This document shows positions 9,233 through 20,280 of a stretch of DNA of 64,000 nucleotides, one piece after another. Source of the stretch: an uncultured virus (IMG/VR IMGVR_UViG_2061766007_000718) (lineage: Duplodnaviria > Heunggongvirae > Uroviricota > Caudoviricetes). The first letter of the stretch is position 1. Every line of letters begins with the position of its first letter. A program made the position numbers and the translations under genes. The notes below the pieces were generated by a model, which saw only the letters and a program-made list of their open reading frames with translations, had not been told where the DNA came from and searched no databases. The stretch lies in the IMG/VR virus record IMGVR_UViG_2061766007_000718. One strand, written 5' to 3'.

Positions 9233-10760
9233 TTACAAGCCCATTGAGATTCGATATTCCTCGCTTATACAAGCATCGTGATATGCAGCATTAAATGCCA
9301 CATGGTCATATCGTCTGAGCATTGTCCCGTAATTACCATTCCGATGCCTTTTGGCGATAACCAAATCTTCATCCGATACTGGCAACTCATTCAGAACTTC
9401 CTCAAATTCCTTTCTGCTCAACCTATTCATAATTACTCCAATTTCCACATCATTAAAACCAATCTATGTAGATGAAATCCGCATCGGAATAGCAATTCTC
9501 ATTGCTGGACAACTCAATCCACGACTTAAACAAATCAACTAATTTCCTGACGGTAAAACCTTCGAAAAGGATTTCATTGTATTCCATCTGCTCTAACTTT
9601 TTCACAAGCTCATTCAAACCGCTTTTGGAAATCTGCCAGTTGGGATTGTAACTACACCAATCAGCATCAACTTCTGAATATGTAGTTATAATGCCTTCTT
9701 CAACCAAGAAATTTTCAAGGTTTTCACAATCGTGATTGAACAACGGAATACTCTTGTATTCCACTATGCTTTTCGTTCTTATCTTTGCCTGTCTGCTCAT
9801 TTTTCTACATTTTATTTGTTGCTAATTCTTATTACTCAAATGCTGAGAAATCAAACCATCAAGGACGCGCGACAGACCACGAGGTCTGCGCTCAATACCA
9901 GTCTTTGTAACTGCACATTTTTGTAACAGCAGCTTTTGTCGCTGTAACAATAACATATTATCTATCAGCTTAATTTCCGACAAACATTCCTGTGCAGTCT
10001 GTACTGGTGGAACATCATCCGTTCCCTCAAACATAACATCAGCAAGAACCTCGAACTCCTTTTCCTTAATCACTTTAAAACCTTTCTTTGCTTTCATATC
10101 TTTACTAATTTTTGAACTTGTTACCATACTATATCGTTAAGGTCCAGATTCGCTGATATAACAGCAACACCCTCACCTCTGTATTTTCTGCAAAATTTCT
10201 GAACGGCCTTTGAAACCGCATTAGTCGTATCCGCTTCTTTTCCCTGCTTTAATATCACATCTTCAAAAAAGCATTCCATCTTGCTAAAACTCATTGCTTC
10301 AATTGTTACTTTCATAATCAATATTTTTATCTTGTCCGTTAACTATTCTTAATCCCATTCTTCATAATCTTCTTCGTCATCCTCCAGTTCTTCCGGCCTT
10401 TCGTTGCTTTTATATACACGGCTATCAATATCATTGGGAACATCATAATTACCATCATTGATTTGGTCAATTAGCAAAGAAACCATAACGTGGAGCTTTT
10501 GGTTGTACTCTTCATCATTTTTGCAAAAGTCGAGTTCCACAGCAAGATCTGTGACCTCTTTGCTGGCTTTGTCCATAATNNNNNNNNNNNNNNNNNNNNN
10601 NNNNNNNNNNNNNNNNNNNNNNNNNNNNNNNTGTAAACCATTCTCATTGCAGCCCTTACAAATTCTCCTTTTAAGGTATTGCACATTCCTGAGATTGGCA
10701 CCAACTGCTGGTGCAATGAATTCAATTTTTCGTCAATTGCATCTACTTGATTTTGATTNN
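9233..10760 (-). CDS. Cluster of about five small hypothetical genes (9233-9448, 9453-9800, 9822-10127, 10121-10321, 10349 to about 10760)
   Basis: Closely packed co-oriented ORFs, several acidic; the first is broken by gaps. Confidence 0.55.
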
Positions 10761-10777
10761 NNNNNNNNATTACTTTT

Positions 10778-11227
10778 GTGAAAAAATTCAACAGCATGAT
10801 TGACATACGAACAGTAATGGAAAAATATGGGTACTCGAAACAGATGCTCGCAGATAAACTTGGTTGCTCACATCAGTCTATAATGCAACTTGTTAACCCA
10901 GGCTCAAATCCGACCTACAAAAAAATGCAACTTATAGCAGATGCAATGGGTGCCGATATTCGCGAGTTCTTCCCGAGTGCAGAAGACATCAAGATGTCAA
11001 AGGAAATACGAGGCTCTTTCGATTGTCCCGTATGCGGAAAGCCCTTGTTGGTCTCTGTTGAACAATATGCAGAAACGGAAAACAACCGAGGTCGGAAACC
11101 AAGCAAGGATTTAGTATGCCCTCATTGCGGCAAACCTATCTCCATAGTCGTATCAAAAAACAGAAACACCACTCGCTGCATAAGGCGACAGGAAGTTGTC
11201 AGGCAGCAAATGCAGCAAACAGATTAG
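10778..11227 (+). CDS. XRE-type HTH regulator with two zinc ribbons
   Basis: SKQMLADKLGCSHQSI HTH, CPVCGK and CPHCGK. Confidence 0.8.
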   Translation: MKKFNSMIDIRTVMEKYGYSKQMLADKLGCSHQSIMQLVNPGSNPTYKKMQLIADAMGADIREFFPSAEDIKMSKEIRGSFDCPVCGKPLLVSVEQYAETENNRGRKPSKDLVCPHCGKPISIVVSKNRNTTRCIRRQEVVRQQMQQTD

Positions 11228-11685
11228 CATACAAACGAAATCCTGCCTCTATCGGAATACGAATAGTATTCATTAGGCGTTATTATAAGGTGTTCAACAA
11301 ACTCAATACCGATTATATCAAACGCTTCCTTTATGGATTTTGTAAGCAGATCATCATGCCTTGATGGCAGTATGCTTCCGCTCGGATGATTATGCACTAG
11401 GATTACCGACGATGCCAATGTGTCAATAGCATATTTGAGCAAAACCCTTTTATCTATGAAACAACAATCTATCCCGCCTATCGAAACCAAAGCATAGCCG
11501 ATAACCTTATTGCTTCTATTCAGCATAATCATATATGCCTTCTCAATACAACTAATGCTGCTGTCGTACAGGTTCAACGCAAAATTGTACACATCCTCCG
11601 ACTTTAAAACCTGAGAACTCTCAAAAGCAGTATAACATCCTGTTACACTAATCTGATATTCCTTTACTGATTCTTCTTTCATCAT
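11224..11685 (-). CDS. RadC-like JAB domain protein
   Basis: ILVHNHPSGSILPSRHD motif. Confidence 0.9.
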   Translation of the reverse strand: MMKEESVKEYQISVTGCYTAFESSQVLKSEDVYNFALNLYDSSISCIEKAYMIMLNRSNKVIGYALVSIGGIDCCFIDKRVLLKYAIDTLASSVILVHNHPSGSILPSRHDDLLTKSIKEAFDIIGIEFVEHLIITPNEYYSYSDRGRISFVC

Positions 11686-11811
11686 TCATCTATTATTTTG
11701 ATGTAAACTTACTATGTTTCAATAGTTTATGCAAATTATTTAACATAAATTTTGCTTCCCGAATGTAGAAAAGTGCTTGACTTTTAATCACGTATCCGTT
11801 TCATTTGCGAC

Positions 11812-12065
11812 ATGAACAAATCGCAACACATACAACAGCAAGCACAAGACCTATTCTGCCGTATGGTCAAAGCGACCTGCGGTTTTTCCTGCATACGCGA
11901 GTACAAGTTCCACCCTACGCGCAAGTGGCGTTTCGACTACTGCATCCCGGAACGGAAGATAGCAATCGAGGTCGAGGGCGGTGCGTGGATTCAAGGACGG
12001 CACAACCGCGCAGAGGGATTCATTGGAGACATGGAAAAGTACAATACTGCCGCCAGTATGGGGTG
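11812..12065 (+). CDS. PD-(D/E)XK endonuclease (Vsr/DUF559-like); 3' end in gap
   Basis: REYKFHPTRKWRFDY...AIEVEGG...GRH...DMEKYN; palindrome promoter at 11773-11807. Confidence 0.8.
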
Positions 12066-12299
12066 NNNNNNNNNNTTTTTTGCTTTGCGTGAATGTGACA
12101 AAGCGCATCTTCATATTGCCGAGGAGNNNNNNNNNNACAGCAACTACATACCACAGCATTTCTCAACATCGTAAAAGCGACAGCAGAGTATTCTTACACT
12201 CCAGAACTTACATTGTTTTAAAATATCGAAGTATAAAAAATATGCATTTGCTGTTTCGTTTTTCCGCGATTAGAGAAAACAAGTATAACAGATTTGCAT

Positions 12300-13851
12300 T
12301 TACAACAATGCGTCAAGGACTTCCTCGTCCGACATAATTTGCACACTCTCTCCAAAATGTTCGCACATGCCAGAAAGCACATCGGGACCATCATCGTGCG
12401 CATTATGTCCCTCCCTGCGGAACGCCTTGATGTCGTGAGCGAACTCCGGCCAGCGTCTTTCCCAGCCTGTCGGAAAGTACACAAGATTCTGCACTTCTGC
12501 CGAGCGCGTGTATATGCGGACATTCTTGTTTTTGCTTTGCGTGAATGTGACAAAGCGCATCTTCATATTGCCGAGGAGACGGACATTGTGTTCAACATTA
12601 CGCGCAAATCCGCGCCCACCGTTGTTCCCTTCAATAAGCGCTAAAGCAGTATCATTGCGAACAAGCATTTCGGCAGTCACATTTTCCGTGTATTCCATCG
12701 GCTTNNNNNNNNNNTCCTTCGATAAGCGCTAAAGCAGTATCGTTGCGAACAAGCATTTCGGCAGTCACATTTTCCGTGTATTCCATCGGCTTCTTGGTGT
12801 ATATCACATCAGTAACATACATTGCCGTTGGATATTCGACATAACTTATAGAGCACAAGAAGTCCGAACCAGTATCAGCCGTATCGGTGTAGTTTTTGTA
12901 GAACTTCTTCCTGTTGTCTTCGAGAGGCATAATATCATAGGTTCTGAAACTTTCGTACATAAGTCCCTCCATCGGTCTCGGATTCTGCTGATACTGGGTT
13001 TCGTACACAAACGAGTCCGCGCCACGAAGCCGGTGCAATTCTTCAACGGTATGCTTGAACGGCCAAAGCGAATGTTCCTCGCCGTTGTCATCAACCATCA
13101 GGCAAGGCAAAGAAACGACATCCCACAGGTCCGGTTCTATTTCCATAAGATAACCGCAAAGGTCGTGCTCGTGAAGCCTCTGCATTATGATTATTATCGG
13201 AGTGTTCCTATTGTTGGTACGGCTACGGATAGTATTTTCAAACCTTTGGTTGACCTGTTCACGGACATTGTCAGACAACGCCTCGACAGGCTTTATCGGA
13301 TCGTCAATGACGATGGCGCCGCTAAATTCATATTGTCCACCTTCGTCCCGGACAACGCCAGCACCGAATCCTGTTATTTGCCCAAGTGTAGAAGTCGCAT
13401 ACATACAACCGCCTGCAGTTGTAGCCCATTCCGCCTTTGTGTCCTCTCCAGCCTTGATAGCAGTCCAAGGAAACAGCCTCTGGTACTCATCGCTTTCTAT
13501 TATGTCCTTGACAGCAACGGAATTTTGCGTAGCAAGGCTTTTGGAATATGACAGATGAAGAAAGTTTGACTTCGGGTTGACGGCCATTCCCAAGGCAATG
13601 AACATTTGTGACACAAGTAATGTCTTGCCATATCGAGGTGCAATGTTTATGATGAGCTTATTGGTCGGATGGGTTCCGTTCAGTATCTGCGACAACTTGT
13701 CTGCTATTATTGCATGATGATTCCCGACAACAAAACGCCTATTGCTTGTCGCCTTGAACAGATGCCTTGTAAACGCCAACGGGTCTTTACGAAACAGGTT
13801 GAACAGGCATAGGTTGACCTTATCTTCACGCGATAGTTTAGTCATCGGCAA
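12300..13851 (-). CDS. terL: Terminase large subunit (module 2); one gene split by a gap with duplicated overlap
   Basis: INIAPRYGKT Walker A, IVIDDP Walker B, MQRLHEHDL, YTDTADTGSD and HDDGPD nuclease motifs. Confidence 0.9.
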
Positions 13852-14257
13852 GCCTCTTCTTCATTTCTTCTATATCCTCATCCGCCATTATAAATGGCTG
13901 TGTAGGTATTAGCCTTTCTCCATTGTTGCCTGTAATCTCCTGCTTCTCCACCATTTCACCAGTTAGCTTGAACAGCAGTTCACCGCTTTTCGTATTGCCA
14001 TTGAGCGCATCGGTAAGAAAGCGTGCAAGCACCGCCATTCTGTTCGACTGGTCGGCGTCTTTGATTTGCAGCTTGTCAAGATTAGATTTTATTTTCTTGT
14101 TTGAAACTGGTAACGAAAGAAGCATAAGGGCAAGTTCTTTGGCTTCCTTCTTGTTCCTTCGAACCTTGCCACTTGCGATTCCTCCTTTTCTGCCGTTTCT
14201 CTTGGCTTCCTCTCGGCTTTGGTCGCTTGTCTTCGGTATAAGATTTTTATCGTTCAT
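13838..14257 (-). CDS. Terminase small subunit-like protein (module 2)
   Basis: NLIP...REEAKRNGRKGGIASGKVRR motif; overlaps the terL start. Confidence 0.7.
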   Translation of the reverse strand: MNDKNLIPKTSDQSREEAKRNGRKGGIASGKVRRNKKEAKELALMLLSLPVSNKKIKSNLDKLQIKDADQSNRMAVLARFLTDALNGNTKSGELLFKLTGEMVEKQEITGNNGERLIPTQPFIMADEDIEEMKKRLADD

Positions 14258-14306
14258 ATTATAAAATCCTTTCTTGTTTTTCTATTGGTAATTCGTGATT
14301 TATTAG

Positions 14307-14427
14307 TATCTTTGCACCCGGAACAGATGCGGGTCGGAATGCAGGCAATCCCCCGCGAGACCGTAGGTAGTTAATCCTATATCTGGTATGTTCGCTGCAA
14401 AGCCAACCTGCACTGCCCTTTGCTTTA
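14307..14427 (+). ncRNA. Candidate structured small RNA convergent on the CdiA-like nuclease gene
   Basis: -7 box TATCTTTG at 14307-14314, GC-rich multi-stem sequence, 3' hairpin GCAAAG/CTTTGC followed by Ts. Confidence 0.5.
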
Positions 14428-14492
14428 TAATATTGAAAACAAAAATCAACAACATATTTGAAGGAAAAGCACACATTGGTAATTCTCCTAAT

Positions 14493-15005
14493 TTACTTGT
14501 CGTTATGAGAATGCTCATAAACATTTCCAGCTTTTGATATTACGATTATACGCTTAAAGCGATAACTTTTATGCTTCTCATATTCTATTATGCCATCTTC
14601 AACTTCTTGTCTATGGTAATTACTATGTTTATCGTAAACTACGGCCACTTCTGCTCGTTTGTCAGAGGCATGTTCAATAGCTTTCTTAAATGAGGCGCCA
14701 CCTTTTTTGGGCGTTTTTTGTTCAAACGTAAATGAATAGATATAACCTTCTTTTGTTTGAACTGAACCAGTTTCGTCTTTCAATATTACACGATAGCCAG
14801 CTCTGGCCATGTGCCTACCAGCCTCAACCTCTTCGATTTTATGCTTTGCCTTACCTTTCTCTATAGCGAATACACCTCCACTAGTAGTCATTTCTACCTG
14901 TTTATATCTGCCAGACGCATTCATTTCCTCAACAAGTGATTTCACTTCTGCATTAGGCAGACTATATTTATCTACCATCCTATCAGAGCCAAAATCCTTA
15001 GCCAT
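14493..15005 (-). CDS. Stand-alone CdiA C-terminal-like (tRNase-type PD-(D/E)XK) nuclease
   Basis: EVEAGRHMARAGYRVIL...FEQKTP...IEHASDKRAEVAVV resembles CdiA_C family domains. Confidence 0.55.
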   Translation of the reverse strand: MAKDFGSDRMVDKYSLPNAEVKSLVEEMNASGRYKQVEMTTSGGVFAIEKGKAKHKIEEVEAGRHMARAGYRVILKDETGSVQTKEGYIYSFTFEQKTPKKGGASFKKAIEHASDKRAEVAVVYDKHSNYHRQEVEDGIIEYEKHKSYRFKRIIVISKAGNVYEHSHNDK

Positions 15006-15606
15006 TGTTCCGTTCTCCTTTCTCCGTCATAAAGTCTGTAACATAGAGTAGCGAATGTTTCATACAATATTCGTGAATCTCACTTCCGCCACCATACACT
15101 ATCATATTTGGAATATCACGTCCCGAAATATGACAGGCCATCTGGTGTTCCATCTGTAAAGCTTCTAGTTTGCCTCGATACCCACGCGTGGCAAAGGCAT
15201 TGTAGCCATCTGGAATGCCAAGACGATTGTAATCGTAAAACTTTGCGCTAACATTGAGGTCGGCATAAATTGCTATGCCATGGTCCTGCCAAAAGCGGGA
15301 AATCCAACGCTTCCGGTAAATTCTCTCTATTCCACGAGCCACTGGTGTTGTATCAAACAAAGAATAATTTACTTCTACTGCTTGTACTATACCGTTGGCA
15401 ATTATTTTTGCAGGGTTATCCCATATAGTTGCAAACCTATAATCTTCAACATAATAGTGAATTGTTTTTGCTGTCTTCATTTTGAATGCAGTCCCATAAG
15501 GAACAAACGGAAGTTCCAGTTGTCCGGCTTGGCAGTCTATACGCAAGACAGGAATATCAAACTCATTGTCACTTGCAAATAATATGTCTTTGATTTTCTC
15601 TGCCAT
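14998..15606 (-). CDS. DUF4417 family protein
   Basis: FDIPVL...IHYYVEDYRFATIWDNP...NYSLF...IYRKRW; this family commonly lies beside terminases. Confidence 0.8.
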   Translation of the reverse strand: MAEKIKDILFASDNEFDIPVLRIDCQAGQLELPFVPYGTAFKMKTAKTIHYYVEDYRFATIWDNPAKIIANGIVQAVEVNYSLFDTTPVARGIERIYRKRWISRFWQDHGIAIYADLNVSAKFYDYNRLGIPDGYNAFATRGYRGKLEALQMEHQMACHISGRDIPNMIVYGGGSEIHEYCMKHSLLYVTDFMTEKGERNNG

Positions 15607-15644
15607 TGTAATTTATAAACTGTCTATATCATTCATCAACATTG

Positions 15645-15679
15645 CAAAAGAAATGAAAAAGTATTTATAATACAAACAC
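15645..15679 (-). promoter_or_regulatory. Late-type promoter of the DUF4417-nuclease-terminase 2 operon
   Basis: Palindrome GTATTT-N7-AAACAC at 15661-15679, 8 nt spacer, TTCTTTTG box. Confidence 0.65.
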
Positions 15680-15749
15680 TTTTATTTTCAAAAAAGAAGA
15701 AGCCACCAGAATTTATTCCGAATGGCTTCCTGTAATAAAACATATTTTA

Positions 15750-15839
15750 GGGTGGCGGGCAGGAGTCGAACCTGCCTAAGTTGCGAAAAATCTTAACTTG
15801 CAATTTACGCGATGGCTCGCCGTTGCACCATTCGCCACC
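15750..15839 (-). tRNA. tRNA-like element with degenerate anticodon arm
   Basis: Acceptor GGTGGCG/CGCCACC and T-arm GCAGG-TTCGACT-CCTGC intact; no canonical anticodon stem-loop. Confidence 0.55.
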
Positions 15840-16232
15840 TCGTGGAATCTTAATCTTTCTGCAAGTTCACAAGTCTCAACAACCTGCCACACCATTGTTT
15901 GNNNNNNNNNNTGTAGCAAGGCTTTTGGAATATGACAGATGAAGAAAGTTTGACTTCGGGTTNNNNNNNNNNNNNNNNNNNNNNNNNNNNNNNNGTGCAG
16001 ATATTTTAATTCTATATGTAGAGGTACAAAAAAACTGACTTTTAATGTCAGGTGGCATTGCACCGCGTAATTGTTTTAGCGATGCAATGATATTGCATTT
16101 TTTTGATATGGCAAAAAAAATGTACTATTTCATGCATCTTTTTATAAAGTATTTATGTNNNNNNNNNNNNNNNNNNNNGCGATTTCACCGCTTTGCAATA
16201 AATTTGCTCCGAATAACTTAAATGACATAAAT

Positions 16233-16858
16233 ATGAGAAAGATTTTTATGGTATTGATGCTCGGCCTTGTCAGCATCATTTGTTTCGGACAGAACATTGG
16301 GACAGGAACAGCGACTGCAACAGAAACAGTTGAATTTGCAGACAACAGCGAAAGCGAAATTGTAAAACTGATGAACAATGGAAGCACCCTGACAAAAAAG
16401 GAATTTTTTGACCTTCCAGATGTAAAGGGAGTGTCATTCGAAGTCATAATAATCACAGATATGGTAAAGGGCAGCAAGTATGGCGGTCNNNNNNNNNNNN
16501 NNNNNNNNNNNNNNNNNNNNNNNNNNNNNCATATATAGGAACTCTTGACTATTCGGAAATTGACGACTGCATAAATTCAATGAATGTAATCAAAAATGAC
16601 ATATTGCCGACAACTCCAAGCATCTATACCGAAGTCAGATACAAGACAAAAGACTATGTAGAGATGGGCGCTTTATTCTCTCCAAATAATAGCTGGGCAC
16701 TTATACAGGCTCCATCTACAGGGAAATGGTTTGTTTACATATCAACGAAATCGTATCTAAACAATTCTACGGCTATTATTCCGGCAAAGCAGATTGATGC
16801 AATCATAAGCAACCTGCAAGAATCCAAAAGAATAATCGAAGAACAAACTAACAAGTAG
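16233..16858 (+). CDS. Secreted moron protein (gap inside)
   Basis: Signal peptide MRKIFMVLMLGLVSIICFG, own TAAATTTG promoter at 16199, downstream terminator. Confidence 0.65.
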
Positions 16859-16890
16859 GTGCAATGTCGGCAAACTAACTTCACAATCAT

Positions 16891-16920
16891 AAAAATGTGG
16901 GTAAGTTGCCCACATTTTTT
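16891..16920. terminator. Bidirectional rho-independent terminator
   Basis: AAAAATGTGGG-TAAGTTG-CCCACATTTTT between convergent genes. Confidence 0.8.
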
Positions 16921-16923
16921 GTT

Positions 16924-17986
16924 TCATTTTTCCAACTTATCAAGTCGTTGTTGCCACTTGTCAATTATCGGATAAGGATTGTACAATTCATACACGCCTG
17001 AATAATATGTAATCTTCTCTCCATTCCTAATCTTGTCTGCTGCAAAATTTTCTTTGCCATACTTCTTTGCCAACGCCATAACATAATCTTTCTGTCGTTC
17101 CCTCAACCCTGAAAAAAATAATATGGCATATTTCAAAACCCTTTTTTCTTCATCTTTCAACTTTGCCCGCGAATAGATTTTTATAAGACGTTCGTATGCC
17201 GTTGTACCTTGGTATTGATGTGCAAGCAATTCTTCATACCTCCTTGCAGCAGTCTCATAGTCATACTTGCTTTCTGCAACCTTGCCGTCATTGAGCATTT
17301 TGGAAAACTCCCTTTGAATTGCCCACACATTTTTTACTGCTGGACTTTTGAATGCCTTATCAGCCCTGGAGTCATCGCCACTGTTGTAAAAATCAAACTC
17401 CAACATCTTTGATTTGGCAAGTTCAAATTTTTCTCCGAGTGTAACGCCATCAACTTTATACGGTTCTGCTTTTGCAGGAAACNNNNNNNNNNNNNNNGAA
17501 CCTTCTGCTTTTTGCAACATTACCTGCAGTTCCTCGCTATCTCCGAAAACCTCTATCTTCCTACGAATAACCCTGCACAAGTCTTCTTTCCTTTCCAGTC
17601 TTCTATATAGGACAATAAGCCTATCGTAAGATTGAGTAGCCTTGTACCCTATGGCAATATTATCTTCGTATGCCTTTATCGCATCATCTATTCTGCCTTC
17701 TTTTTCGGCAGCACTACCAATATTGTTCAGTTCTGCCGTGCGTTTCAGTCTCTTCTCAAGCTCCTTGTATCTTTTACTTTCGGCTATTGCGCCATCATAT
17801 ATATTGCGAGGCACAAAGAAAANNNNNNNNNNNNNNNNNNNNNNNNNNNNNNNNNNNNNNNNNNNNNNNNNNNNNNNNNNNNNNNNNNNNNNNNNNNNNN
17901 NNNNNNNNNNNNNNNNNNNNNNNNNNNNNNNNNNNNNNNNNNNNNNNNNNNNNNNNNNNNNNNNNNNNNNTATTAAATATACCCAT
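16924..17986 (-). CDS. Moron protein with two TPR-like helical domains (gaps)
   Basis: Repeated units NNIGSAAEKEGRIDDAIKAYE...SYDRL and NDGKVAESKYDYETAARRYE...AYERL; likely start MGIFN at 17986. Confidence 0.65.
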
Positions 17987-18132
17987 AACTATTTTTTTGC
18001 AAATATGGAGATTTTTTTTGACCCTGCAAAAACTGGTGTTAGTCCTACTGGGAATTGAATTGGCGCTGATTATCAAACGGCAAGCAAAAAGACGGACTAA
18101 AACAGGGACTAAACGGAGCGAAGTTCACCATT

Positions 18133-19461
18133 TCACTTGTTGGCGTTTGCATAGTCCCTGCACACATAACTTGTTGATTCCAAGATGTATGAATAGTGCT
18201 TTCTGCAATAGCAGGCATCTTTCGCCTCGACAGTCCCATCGTTTGGCTTATGGAACCAGCAGTTCCTGCAGCAATGTTTTACTTTTTCTCTCATTGGTTG
18301 TTTACTTTTTGTCATTATACCTACATTCCACAAGATTCAGGATAAACAAAGCTTGTTCGTCAAGTTGGTAGGTCTCTTTTAATCTTTTTATTACATCACT
18401 AAAGCATTTGTCTTTCCATTCTGCCATTAACATTGCAGAATTATAGCGTTGCAATTTAATCATTATCTCTTCTCGGAATTTTGTTTCATATTTAGCAAAA
18501 TTAACGCTTAGTACTCTTGCTTTTTCTTCATTTGTCATTGTCCATCCCTTTCAGTATCTTCGTTTTTTAAAAATCTTTCCGCCGTGTCTAATGCCCTGCG
18601 AACTACCTCGATACTTTTCAAATTGTCAAATACCAATTGCACTTGTATGGGGTATTTAGGCGCGTCTTCTTCAAAATCTTCTCCACATTCAAGTTGTTTT
18701 TTCAGTTCTGAGAATGCAACAACTGCTTCTTTTTTATTAACACTATATCCGGACTGGACTGCTATTCCTCCGCCAAATACTACGACGGCAGAACCATTAA
18801 TGTACGATGTTTTTTTCATATCATTATTTTAATAAGTTTTCATCTATAAACTTACCACAGCAAGGACAAATGATATACCTGCCATCTCGATCCATTTGAA
18901 TATCGCTTTCGCTTACTTTCAGTTTAGATTTACAACGTGGGCATTTGACCTTAAATGTGGTTTCCTTATAATTGTTCTTTATAATTTTCATAGTGTTTCT
19001 CCTTTCATCCATTCTTTGGTATTGTTAAAATAAGTATCGTATTTGTACTTTGAAAGGTCTTCATTTGCAATATTATCAAGCCTATACTGGTACTTGTCTC
19101 TTTTTTCAACAAGGTCTTGCTTTCCATATCCAAACAAATCATCCGCACAAGCCTCAATCTTCCTATTCATCTCTGTAACTTTTGCCTTCAAACTCCTCTC
19201 TATACTTTTCCGTTTATCTTGCAGATATTTTTCCGAAAACCAGTATTTTAGTTCTGGCGTGACTTGATAACAACGCAAATAAACTCGCCTTTTCGGATGA
19301 ACCACTTGTATTCGCGCTGTCAAATAGCGGAAGAACCAACTATACCTTTCATAAAAAAAGTAAGGTATAAGATTAAAATAAACCATTTTGTCAGGTATGT
19401 TAGAATTTTTGATACACACCGTAATCTTTACACAAACCTCTATGTCTTTAAGGCTAAACAT
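18133..19461 (-). CDS. Five small accessory genes, including Cys-rich/zinc-finger proteins (18133-18333, 18824-19012)
   Basis: Overlapping co-oriented ORFs with CxxC motifs. Confidence 0.55.
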
Positions 19462-19462
19462 A

Positions 19463-19849
19463 TTACTTCTTTTTTATTAGTTCTGGATTATCATGTATAT
19501 TGCCAACCACTTCCAAGTCCGGCCATTTTTTTAAGAACATTCCGAGCACATCACTGCTAAGGAAGCCTTTCGGCCATCTAAGGCGGAATGCAGCTTCTTT
19601 CTTGCTGAACACTACGGTAAGATAATAATCCCTTTCTTCGTCCCTTAGCAACAGCAGGTCGTGTTCAAATATAGGCACATTCCTCGAATCGGACAATCCT
19701 GTATATTGTCCTACAGTTTTTCTATCTACGGAATACAACGCACCGCCACACTGTTCGATTATCCACCATTGATGGTTTCCGAATACAATGCCGCCATGCT
19801 TCCATGTTCCATAGTCAATGCTTTTTCCTCTGAAAATAAATGGTCTCAT
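19463..19849 (-). CDS. YopX family protein
   Basis: FRGKS...W..G, VGQYTGL.D, IFEHD, EVVGNIHDNPEL. Confidence 0.9.
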   Translation of the reverse strand: MRPFIFRGKSIDYGTWKHGGIVFGNHQWWIIEQCGGALYSVDRKTVGQYTGLSDSRNVPIFEHDLLLLRDEERDYYLTVVFSKKEAAFRLRWPKGFLSSDVLGMFLKKWPDLEVVGNIHDNPELIKKK

Positions 19850-19854
19850 AAATT

Positions 19855-20280
19855 CTATTGTTTTAATAATTCTTGGTTATCGTAGGTGTTACCTATTACC
19901 TTTGTCGGTCTCACATAATGCTTGGTCTCGTGGTCCTTTCTGTTGCACCATGCCAAAAGTGCAGACCAATTACTTCTGATGGACTTTACCACGAAAGAAT
20001 CAGCCTCAAACATTACAACTCCTTTTATCTCTCCGTTAAAATCATCATCAGGAATATGCAGTATGTCACCTTCGTAAATTTCATTTCCATAAGCATCATT
20101 CGCACCTGTAAACTGACCGACTGACTCTGGTTTTACTGCAATACCTTTATATGCAATCTTACCATTATCGTTTGGATATGATACTATTATCTCTGGATAG
20201 TAACCTATGCGCTGAAATAAATCGCCGTATATCCATTCGCCAGTTTCTACATCTTTACCTCTAAACTTAATTGCTCTCAT
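19855..20280 (-). CDS. YopX family protein
   Basis: MRAIKFRGK...GEWIYGDL, VGQFTG, EIYEGDI, VIGNTYDN. Confidence 0.9.
   Translation of the reverse strand: MRAIKFRGKDVETGEWIYGDLFQRIGYYPEIIVSYPNDNGKIAYKGIAVKPESVGQFTGANDAYGNEIYEGDILHIPDDDFNGEIKGVVMFEADSFVVKSIRSNWSALLAWCNRKDHETKHYVRPTKVIGNTYDNQELLKQ

Follow-up and report, generated by a model that had tools for sequence, protein, structure and literature searches.

In type III toxin-antitoxin (TA) systems, such as ToxIN, CptIN, and TenpIN, a nuclease toxin is paired with a pseudoknotted noncoding RNA that inhibits it through direct RNA-protein contact. Precedents for antisense control are provided by the type I systems of Bacillus prophages in which RNA and toxin gene overlap at their 3′ ends, txpA/RatA and bsrG/SR4, and by the OOP RNA of phage lambda, a short RNA directed against a polycistronic operon, whose promoter lies just upstream of the next gene and which overlaps the end of the cII coding region. 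Polymorphic toxins, together with the immunity proteins that go with them, are central to conflict in bacteria and phages, and throughout the literature searched for this study the immunity factor is a protein. CdiA-CT 1026b, a toxin of contact-dependent growth inhibition (CDI), acts as an Mg-dependent nuclease of tRNA-Ala with the catalytic residues E187, D214, D223, and K242 (PMC9086364). Among the MuF polymorphic toxins of temperate phages, a small immunity open reading frame (ORF) follows the toxin in 89.4% of 191 cases (PMC5576092), and the MuF toxins of Bacteroidales are likewise followed by small immunity ORFs (PMC11699363). The subject of this article is a locus in the DNA of an uncultured Caudoviricetes virus (IMG/VR record IMGVR_UViG_2061766007_000718; 64,000 nucleotides, the whole of which is referred to as the window), a prophage of a Bacteroidales bacterium, where a gene for a predicted nuclease of the CdiA-CT 1026b type is met at its 3′ end by the gene of a conserved, pseudoknotted small RNA on the opposite strand. 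In the literature searched, which comprised papers without their supplements, no RNA was found to be described as a partner of such toxins.

The genes around the site all lie on the minus strand of the window, and the RNA occupies the 235-nt gap between the nuclease gene and a gene for a 139-amino-acid small-terminase-like protein. It is a type A small RNA of ~110 nt on the plus strand (14316..14429), defined by covariation and by a covariance model designated R1. Comparative sequence analysis establishes its conserved fold, strand, promoter box, and terminator. The covariation alignment contained 11 homologous elements, 10 of them distinct, drawn from related loci that are designated here by L numbers. 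Of the 296 helix cells, 94.9% are paired, compared with 35.6–47.6% when the partners are slid by one to three columns. Both sides have changed in 18 of 30 pairs, all six helices keep pairing through compensatory changes, and the observed covariation score was reached by none of 500 shuffles. Pseudoknot pairing is complete (60/60 cells, vs. 15–43% when slid) and includes compensatory changes in two of six pairs, the variants being UGCAUG/CAUGCA in L008 and L017b and AGCAGG/CCUGCU in L024; the divergent element of L021, aligned by eye, apparently carries GCGGGC/GCCCGC at these positions. The cells of the fold include 19 G·U and 0 A·C oppositions; the fold is therefore selected on the plus strand, antisense to the genes. 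While the helices covary, 16 unpaired nucleotides are invariant in type A, and two of four comparisons show stronger conservation of the RNA than of the coding sequence (89% vs. 66% in L006 and 72% vs. 64% in L024). The R1 model scores 114.1 bits in the window and 102–121 bits in 11 other loci, and the gap sequence 14286–14435 recurs directly 3′ of the homologous gene in many loci. A small coding ORF in the gap was rejected as an explanation: in L024 and L005 stops interrupt every one of the six frames, where the length of the element is not a multiple of three, no frame stays open across the members, and the core varies between 97 and 108 nt; the element is therefore not coding.

The putative promoter region of the RNA (14284..14314, plus strand) comprises ATTG at 14284–14287, with TTG at 14285–14287, a TTG-to-TA spacer of 19 nt, and the −7 box TATCTTTG at 14307–14314. 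The box has the form TAnnTTTG, which we take to be the Bacteroides sigma-A (−7) promoter consensus, and all 18 elements examined, whether homologous or analogous, have it at the same place upstream. The transcript would fold into a three-way junction of helices P1–P3, in which the loop of P2 would kiss the loop of a 3′ hairpin, P4. On the plus strand, P1 (14321–14328/14381–14393) joins GAAC/GTTC (14321–14324/14390–14393) to AGAT/ATCT (14325–14328/14381–14384) around a GGUAU bulge, P2 (14329–14333/14352–14356) is GCGGG/CCCGC, and P3 (14363–14367/14376–14380) is TAGG/CCTA plus one G·U pair. P4 (14397–14402/14418–14423) is GCAAAG/CTTTGC followed by a U-run, TTTAT coming directly after it in the window, and is at the same time the terminator; L004, L007, L008, and L017b have an additional hairpin and T-run after P4, in the RNA orientation only. 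The two halves of the pseudoknot, UGCAGG in the P2 loop (14340..14345) and CCUGCA in the P4 loop (14407..14412), pair with each other. The G+C content of 14300–14399 is 0.50, vs. 0.31–0.37 in the flanks. A preliminary description of this DNA, made from the letters alone, had listed the promoter motifs, the stems (AGAT/ATCT being the core of its CAGATG/TATCTG stem), and the loop-loop complement; all of them lie where it placed them, the stems and the loop-loop pairing are kept in the homologues, and its proposal of a structured, pseudoknotted RNA convergent to the nuclease gene is borne out by the covariation. Rfam 15 gave no match at E ≤ 1 over the RNA site in a search of positions 10000–20000 of the window, or at the RNA sites of 12 related loci. 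A tRNA-like identity was rejected, because ARAGORN called no tRNA or tmRNA in the gap and Rfam yielded no tRNA match there. No tandem repeat array was found in the gap.

The nuclease gene (14493..15005, minus strand) encodes a protein of 170 amino acids. Judged by its structural model, this protein has the PD-(D/E)xK tRNase fold of CdiA-CT 1026b and is predicted to be a nuclease of the toxin type, in agreement with the CdiA-like nuclease of the preliminary description. The AlphaFold2 model (mean predicted local distance difference test score, pLDDT, 83.5) finds 4g6v_A as its top match in VIA-align, with Z 9.8 and a root-mean-square deviation of 3.1 Å over 115 residues of 132, the next match having Z 5.8; 4g6v_A is also the top Foldseek match (E 1.9e-3), and sequence similarity to 4G6V is marginal (E 0.12). 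In a profile alignment, the invariant E59, the near-invariant D86 (E in the window), and the invariant E95 fall on E187, D214, and D223. The protein belongs to phrog_36422, to which no function is assigned (E 5.7e-43). Relatives L088 (39.2 bits), L093 (39.4 bits), and P0165 (27.7 bits) exceed the cut-off of the Pfam family CdiA_C. There were 37 relatives of similar length among 58 candidates; only a few bear a source name, and these derive from metagenome bins of Bacteroidales. When 1.8 billion representatives were searched with a profile, 238 clusters were returned, most of 170–200 amino acids; in the distant ones the nuclease is the C-terminal domain of proteins of 320–510 amino acids, and among the near relatives a weak search found none in a longer, fused form. 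A scan of viral contigs with the single nuclease protein gave no match; loci were found by scans with the family alignment and were drawn in this way from genome, viral, and metagenome collections.

The RNA and the nuclease gene occur together. R1 has 12 strong matches among 35 sources. Each of them immediately follows the 3′ end of a nuclease homologue, or of what remains of one, and is encoded on the other strand, and this placement of type A copies holds whatever gene comes next, be it terS, a Tad2-like gene, or another. A convergent TAnnTTTG box and a G+C-rich element are present wherever the gene is intact and sufficient DNA downstream is available, at 16 of 16 distinct loci. In the L009 group the RNA still follows the nuclease gene despite relocation of the neighboring DUF4417 gene to a downstream position. 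Most loci were collected via the protein, which biases these counts of association. Free of this bias is a pattern scan that searched viral contigs for the motif without guidance by the protein; it gave three matches, all three beside a nuclease gene. The end of the RNA is ~65 nt short of the nuclease stop codon in the window and directly at the stop codon in most homologous loci. As judged by sequence searches, the type A element is rare outside the collected phage loci: R1 had no match in 151 genomes of the order, in a search that lacked a positive control genome. Tad2-like (anti-Thoeris) genes directly follow the module in L002 (3150–3476) and L021 (2637–2963), which suggests an accessory or anti-defense hot spot.

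Other nuclease loci carry RNAs of different sequence in the same position. Type B convergent RNAs, on the minus strand of the locus, were located in L002 (3003–3114), L017 (1772–1879), L019 (3005–3107), L030 (1203–1317), L031 (888–1000), L032 (3071–3185), L036 (832–945), and L009 (2960–3090). Their sequence is unlike that of type A, and their plan is alike, with a promoter box, a long closing helix, and a 3′ terminator hairpin. They share the motifs GUAC and GYRAGGAAA, and the loop of the terminator hairpin is complementary to an internal segment, from which a kissing interaction in type B is only a suggestion. Together with a type C described below, at least three RNA architectures stand beside the nuclease domain, none of them in Rfam. 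One locus, L017, holds a double cassette (1268–2172). It begins with an intact nuclease gene and its type B RNA; after these comes the truncated start of the next gene, fused to eight codons left from another nuclease gene, and this remnant still has an intact type A RNA and a promoter box of its own. The arrangement reads as a record of cassette displacement. In the short contig L030, a 5S rRNA gene (6–114) lies ~260 nt before a partial DUF4417 frame, after which come the nuclease gene and its type B RNA.

A further group of nuclease homologues is fused to a phage head protein. Phage_Mu_F is absent from the window protein and was found in 16 of the 24 longer homologues tested, which have the domain architecture of MuF polymorphic toxins. 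The MuF-nuclease fusions are followed by type C elements of ~70 nt, which consist of one interrupted hairpin with a conserved ACCAG/CAGGG loop region, a terminator, and an opposite-strand TATATTTG box, and in which 11 of 22 predicted pairs are compensatory. Type C elements are present in L126 (the cultured Elizabethkingia phage TCUEAP3, OK632026.1; 2353–2448), where the element follows a gene annotated as “minor head protein” in an unannotated gap of 96 nt, and in L046, L048, L049, L053, L055, and L076. L046, with MuF and nuclease, and L056, with MuF only, are collinear at 82–92% identity except for one block (2145–2774 in L046, vs. 44 nt in L056), which holds the nuclease domain and the RNA element together. 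A convergent box occurs within 200 nt after MuF frames in 29 of 35 cases at 390–480 amino acids, in one of 25 at ≤310 amino acids, and in three of 18 others; these figures come from the 78 loci with enough downstream DNA, the chance of a box is ~0.08 per 200 nt, and many loci are related, so that the counts are not independent. Short MuF genes in otherwise syntenic phages have no convergent RNA. The ORFs that come next after the MuF fusions are conserved phage genes or convergent genes, and are present beside toxin-less MuF genes too.

On its other side, the nuclease gene of the window adjoins a gene for a DUF4417 protein of 202 amino acids (14998..15606, minus strand; Pfam PF14386, E 2.1e-34), the end of which overlaps the nuclease start by 8 nt; the description of the nuclease gene as an orphan was therefore mistaken. 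The DUF4417 protein matches the C-terminal part of phrog_940, a family named “nuclease,” has 72–78% identity to eight of nine relatives and 43% to the ninth, and contains many invariant polar residues. Of 16 distinct loci, 12 show the 8-nt overlap and one more has the two genes side by side. In the L009 group DUF4417 is found downstream of the RNA, loci of the L007 type have no copy within 2.5 kb, and the MuF fusions lack it; it is the usual, not the constant, companion of the nuclease. It is also widespread without this nuclease and fused to ParB-type domains (bioRxiv 10.1101/2025.10.10.680097). In the window, DUF4417, the nuclease, and the RNA form one accessory cassette of 1.4 kb (14255..15656, minus strand), inserted next to the packaging genes and absent from the prophage G001, the nearest genome available for comparison, which has 46 nt in its place. 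A blastn comparison of positions 13001–17500 of the window matched G001 at 97–98% over both flanks (13001–14254 and 15657–15901), with 1,402 nt between them lacking a counterpart. Two further points of the preliminary description, an insertion beside packaging genes and a gap devoid of an immunity gene, thus hold: the gap contains no conserved ORF, and the RNA sits where toxin cassettes normally carry the immunity gene. The module of the window had neither a DNA nor a protein match in a collection of phage GenBank records, and in PADLOC the DUF4417 and nuclease proteins matched no defense system.

We favor the reading that the RNA is the immunity or antitoxin partner of the nuclease and binds it directly, and assign it a probability of roughly 0.4. 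That is, we infer that the RNA is expressed, that the nuclease is toxic, and that the RNA neutralizes it by direct binding. An RNA of ~110 nt would be transcribed from its own Bacteroidetes-type promoter toward the 3′ end of the nuclease gene and would stop at the hairpin and U-run. It would fill the role that a small immunity protein has in other polymorphic-toxin cassettes, the folded RNA binding to the nuclease as a pseudo-substrate that is cleaved slowly or cannot be cleaved and so keeping the enzyme inactive in the prophage-carrying cell. Intact RNAs are found beside nuclease genes that have lost the catalytic half or more (type A in L004, L005, and L017b; type B in L036–39), and no intact nuclease gene without the RNA element was seen among the collected loci; this asymmetry is expected if the RNA protects against the protein. 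Direct binding is favored over antisense action because the 16 invariant unpaired nucleotides and the loop-loop contact persist while the helices turn over, because conservation of the RNA exceeds that of the coding sequence in two of the four comparisons, and because folded tRNA is what the enzyme's closest solved relatives bind (PMC9086364). Direct inhibition also fits the MuF fusions, in which the toxin must be made and then held inactive. A broader proposal, which we hold still more tentatively, is that phages of Bacteroidota use folded RNAs as immunity factors for a polymorphic-toxin nuclease domain, whether standalone or fused to MuF, with the RNA acting as a pseudo-substrate and orphan RNAs representing stored immunity to toxins that arrive with related phages.

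Several observations weigh against direct neutralization of a CdiA-CT-like toxin by its RNA. The match of the window protein to Pfam CdiA_C (PF18451) is below the cut-off (E 3.4e-4, 21.2 bits vs. 26.6), and the catalytic lysine is matched approximately: K242 aligns next to H112, and K116 follows a helical turn later, both of these residues being invariant. The type of RNA is not congruent with the sequence of the protein. The C-terminal halves of the L017 and L019 proteins are 84–87% identical to that of L008, yet their RNAs are type B and not type A, and proteins with N-terminal halves that are 87–98% identical carry type A, type B, or variant type A RNAs; this would be unexpected for tight cognate recognition. 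In type B, the complements between loop and interior are no better, locus by locus, than those of shuffled loops. Folding of the gap in the window sequence alone shows no excess stability over shuffles, with z = −1.08 on the plus and −1.35 on the minus strand. Among 19 longer proteins missed by the first profile, nine contain CdiA_C, three LPD3, one PBECR2, and six no extra match, and convergent TAnnTTTG boxes lie 53–116 nt after the stop codons of the LPD3 (L069, L072, and L116) and PBECR2 (L122) MuF proteins. The RNA position is therefore not exclusive to this nuclease, and RNA partners may not be limited to CdiA_C-like domains. Finally, the mRNA of the nuclease must read through the RNA gene to reach terS and would find in the RNA a perfect antisense, which would suffice for another mechanism, and the true partner of the nuclease could be a protein, DUF4417, to which it is coupled in translation.

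The main rival explanation, in our estimate somewhat less likely than direct binding, is that the RNA is a cis-acting antisense RNA comparable to those of type I systems or lambda OOP, which would pair with a DUF4417-nuclease-terS read-through transcript and never touch the protein; the duplex would be cut by an RNase III-type enzyme and the upstream toxin message would decay, or read-through would be tuned. The layout suits it well, being convergent, with a separate promoter for the RNA and a terminator oriented for the RNA only. Because this terminator serves only that orientation, a nuclease mRNA without a terminator must read through the RNA gene, and the RNA is automatically its perfect antisense; moreover, there is no TAnnTTTG box on the minus strand between the RNA gene and terS. 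The presence of unrelated RNAs of types A, B, and C in one position, not congruent with the protein, is expected if antisense identity alone matters, and the nuclease toxin RalR with its small RNA RalA offers a precedent (cited in PMC5576092). However, antisense pairing in cis needs no conserved tertiary fold, whereas type A keeps a kissing-loop pseudoknot and its invariant unpaired bases. The RNA overlaps at most the stop codon, and neither the coding nor the ribosome-binding region, and an analysis of complementarity to the start regions of nuclease and DUF4417 in five loci revealed no consistent signal above shuffles that would indicate pairing in trans. Orphan RNAs stand beside catalytically dead remnants, where there is little to repress, and in the MuF fusions destabilization of the message would also hit an essential head protein. 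An RNA with an independent job that merely travels in the same cassette, such as a trans-acting regulator, an anti-defense factor, or an insulator where early genes border on packaging genes, we regard as improbable. Its complex fold would suit a trans-acting partner, the Tad2-like genes of L002 and L021 point to an accessory hot spot, RNA type is independent of nuclease sequence, and some MuF proteins that end in a different domain have a convergent box after them too. Such a job would not explain why 12 of 12 type A copies abut the nuclease or its remnant whatever lies downstream, why the RNA comes and goes with the nuclease domain, or why short MuF genes in syntenic phages are without it; the absence of R1 from the 151 genomes, with the limit of that search given above, points the same way.

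It is very unlikely that DUF4417 is the protein antitoxin or immunity partner, or that it forms a harmless two-subunit phage enzyme with the nuclease, the RNA element then serving only in termination or processing. Type II antitoxins are usually encoded by a gene so placed, upstream and overlapping, and the 8-nt overlap in 12 of the 16 distinct loci, with adjacency in another, is in keeping with such a role. DUF4417 is, however, better conserved than the nuclease and with its many invariant polar residues looks like an enzyme; it is widespread without the nuclease and has ParB-type fusions (bioRxiv 10.1101/2025.10.10.680097); and no copy lies within 2.5 kb at loci of the L007 type or accompanies the MuF fusions, which still have a convergent RNA. 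A plain terminator would need no promoter box of its own, three-way junction, or pseudoknot. That there is no functional RNA at all, and that the element is a DNA-level recombination or packaging signal or a chance cluster of palindromes, appears extremely improbable. The element adjoins terS, where pac or cos sites often lie, its fold in the window is no better than that of shuffles, and the promoter motif is common, with 55 TAnnTTTG words found in the whole window vs. 57 expected. Against this stand the compensatory changes in all six helices, the 19 G·U vs. 0 A·C oppositions that mark a single-stranded RNA of one strand, and the genomes in which the element follows the nuclease and not terS. 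The same positional evidence, the RNA following the nuclease rather than the terminase elsewhere, led us to set aside a packaging RNA like the pRNA of phi29, which the complementary loops next to terS had brought to mind.

The genes beyond the cassette belong to the packaging region. The gene for the 139-amino-acid small-terminase-like protein (13838..14257, minus strand) lies outside the cassette and is divergent from the small-RNA promoter; its product matches phrog_2412, which has no assigned function, and it is shared with G001 at 94–97% identity. Directly after it comes the large terminase gene (12652–13851, minus strand; phrog_38, E 1.4e-67). The large terminase frame looks split into pieces of 399 and 132 amino acids (12652–13851 and 12300–12698, minus strand) around masked bases, possibly as an effect of the masking. 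Farther on, beyond the terminase genes, a gene for a RadC-like JAB domain protein (11224–11685, minus strand; Pfam E 4.6e-33) adjoins masked repeats. Just outside the opposite end of the cassette is a tRNA-like gene of 89 nt (15750–15838, minus strand), which ARAGORN calls tRNA-Thr (CGT) and Rfam matches weakly as tRNA-Sec-like (26.6 bits vs. a cut-off of 47). It is also present in the G001 prophage and could matter if the nuclease is a tRNase. Beyond it, positions 15912–15962 are a 51-nt exact copy of an internal stretch of the G001 large terminase gene, and ORF fragments in 15776–16063 repeat terminase peptides in an area interrupted by masked runs of N.

If the RNA does neutralize the enzyme, it would represent a new class of antidote and would give a handle on phrog_36422. 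No earlier case of immunity based on RNA would then be described for polymorphic toxin systems, the TA layout would fit neither type I nor type III, and screens for immunity genes that consider ORFs only would miss part of the picture. Even if the RNA acts by antisense pairing, this would be the first described family of toxin-linked small RNAs in phages of Bacteroidota. The pairing of RNA and nuclease spans phages of gut and rumen Bacteroidales as well as one cultured phage of a flavobacterium, and the pseudoknot, with its natural compensatory variants, makes the RNA a ready test case.

In comparison with known systems, the protein is most similar to CdiA-CT/CdiI 1026b (4G6V), as the best structural match, the three aligned acidic residues, and the weak CdiA_C match indicate. 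It differs in being a standalone protein of 170 amino acids with an extra N-terminal part of ~45 residues, rather than part of a CdiA or two-partner secretion protein; its gene is followed by a convergent RNA gene and not by a CdiI-like ORF, and its distant relatives are fused to Phage_Mu_F rather than to CdiA. Those relatives, in which the nuclease is the C-terminal domain, connect the locus with the MuF toxins (Jamet et al., 2017, PMC5576092) and with Bxa of Bacteroides (PMC11699363): the toxin domain and the element downstream of it are swapped as a unit, and the genes sit among those for packaging and the head. A MuF domain is, however, lacking in the window protein, and a noncoding convergent RNA takes the place of the small immunity ORFs that these papers describe. 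The analogy to type III TA systems drawn in the preliminary description fails on their defining anatomy, an antitoxin made of short tandem repeats that lies upstream of the toxin and is transcribed together with it. A nuclease accompanied by a pseudoknotted RNA is common to both, and direct inhibition is what we propose here. The RNA of the window is, in contrast, a single copy without a repeat array, located downstream on the opposite strand under its own promoter, and the toxin is of the PD-(D/E)xK type and not ToxN-like. The convergent 3′ layout is nearer to type I, in which a small RNA with its own promoter and terminator (both predicted here) likewise meets the 3′ end of a prophage toxin gene, and RalR/RalA indicates that a nuclease can be the toxin of an RNA-antidote pair (cited in PMC5576092). 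Unlike a typical type I toxin, however, the candidate is a soluble enzyme fold of 170 amino acids and not a small membrane peptide, and its RNA lies outside the coding region and has a conserved tertiary fold. Lambda OOP shares the placement, ending at the 3′ end of the preceding gene, but lacks a complex fold and is not part of a mobile toxin cassette. The module thus works most like a toxin-immunity or toxin-antitoxin pair, yet is a member of no defined class, whether CDI, type III, or typical type I.

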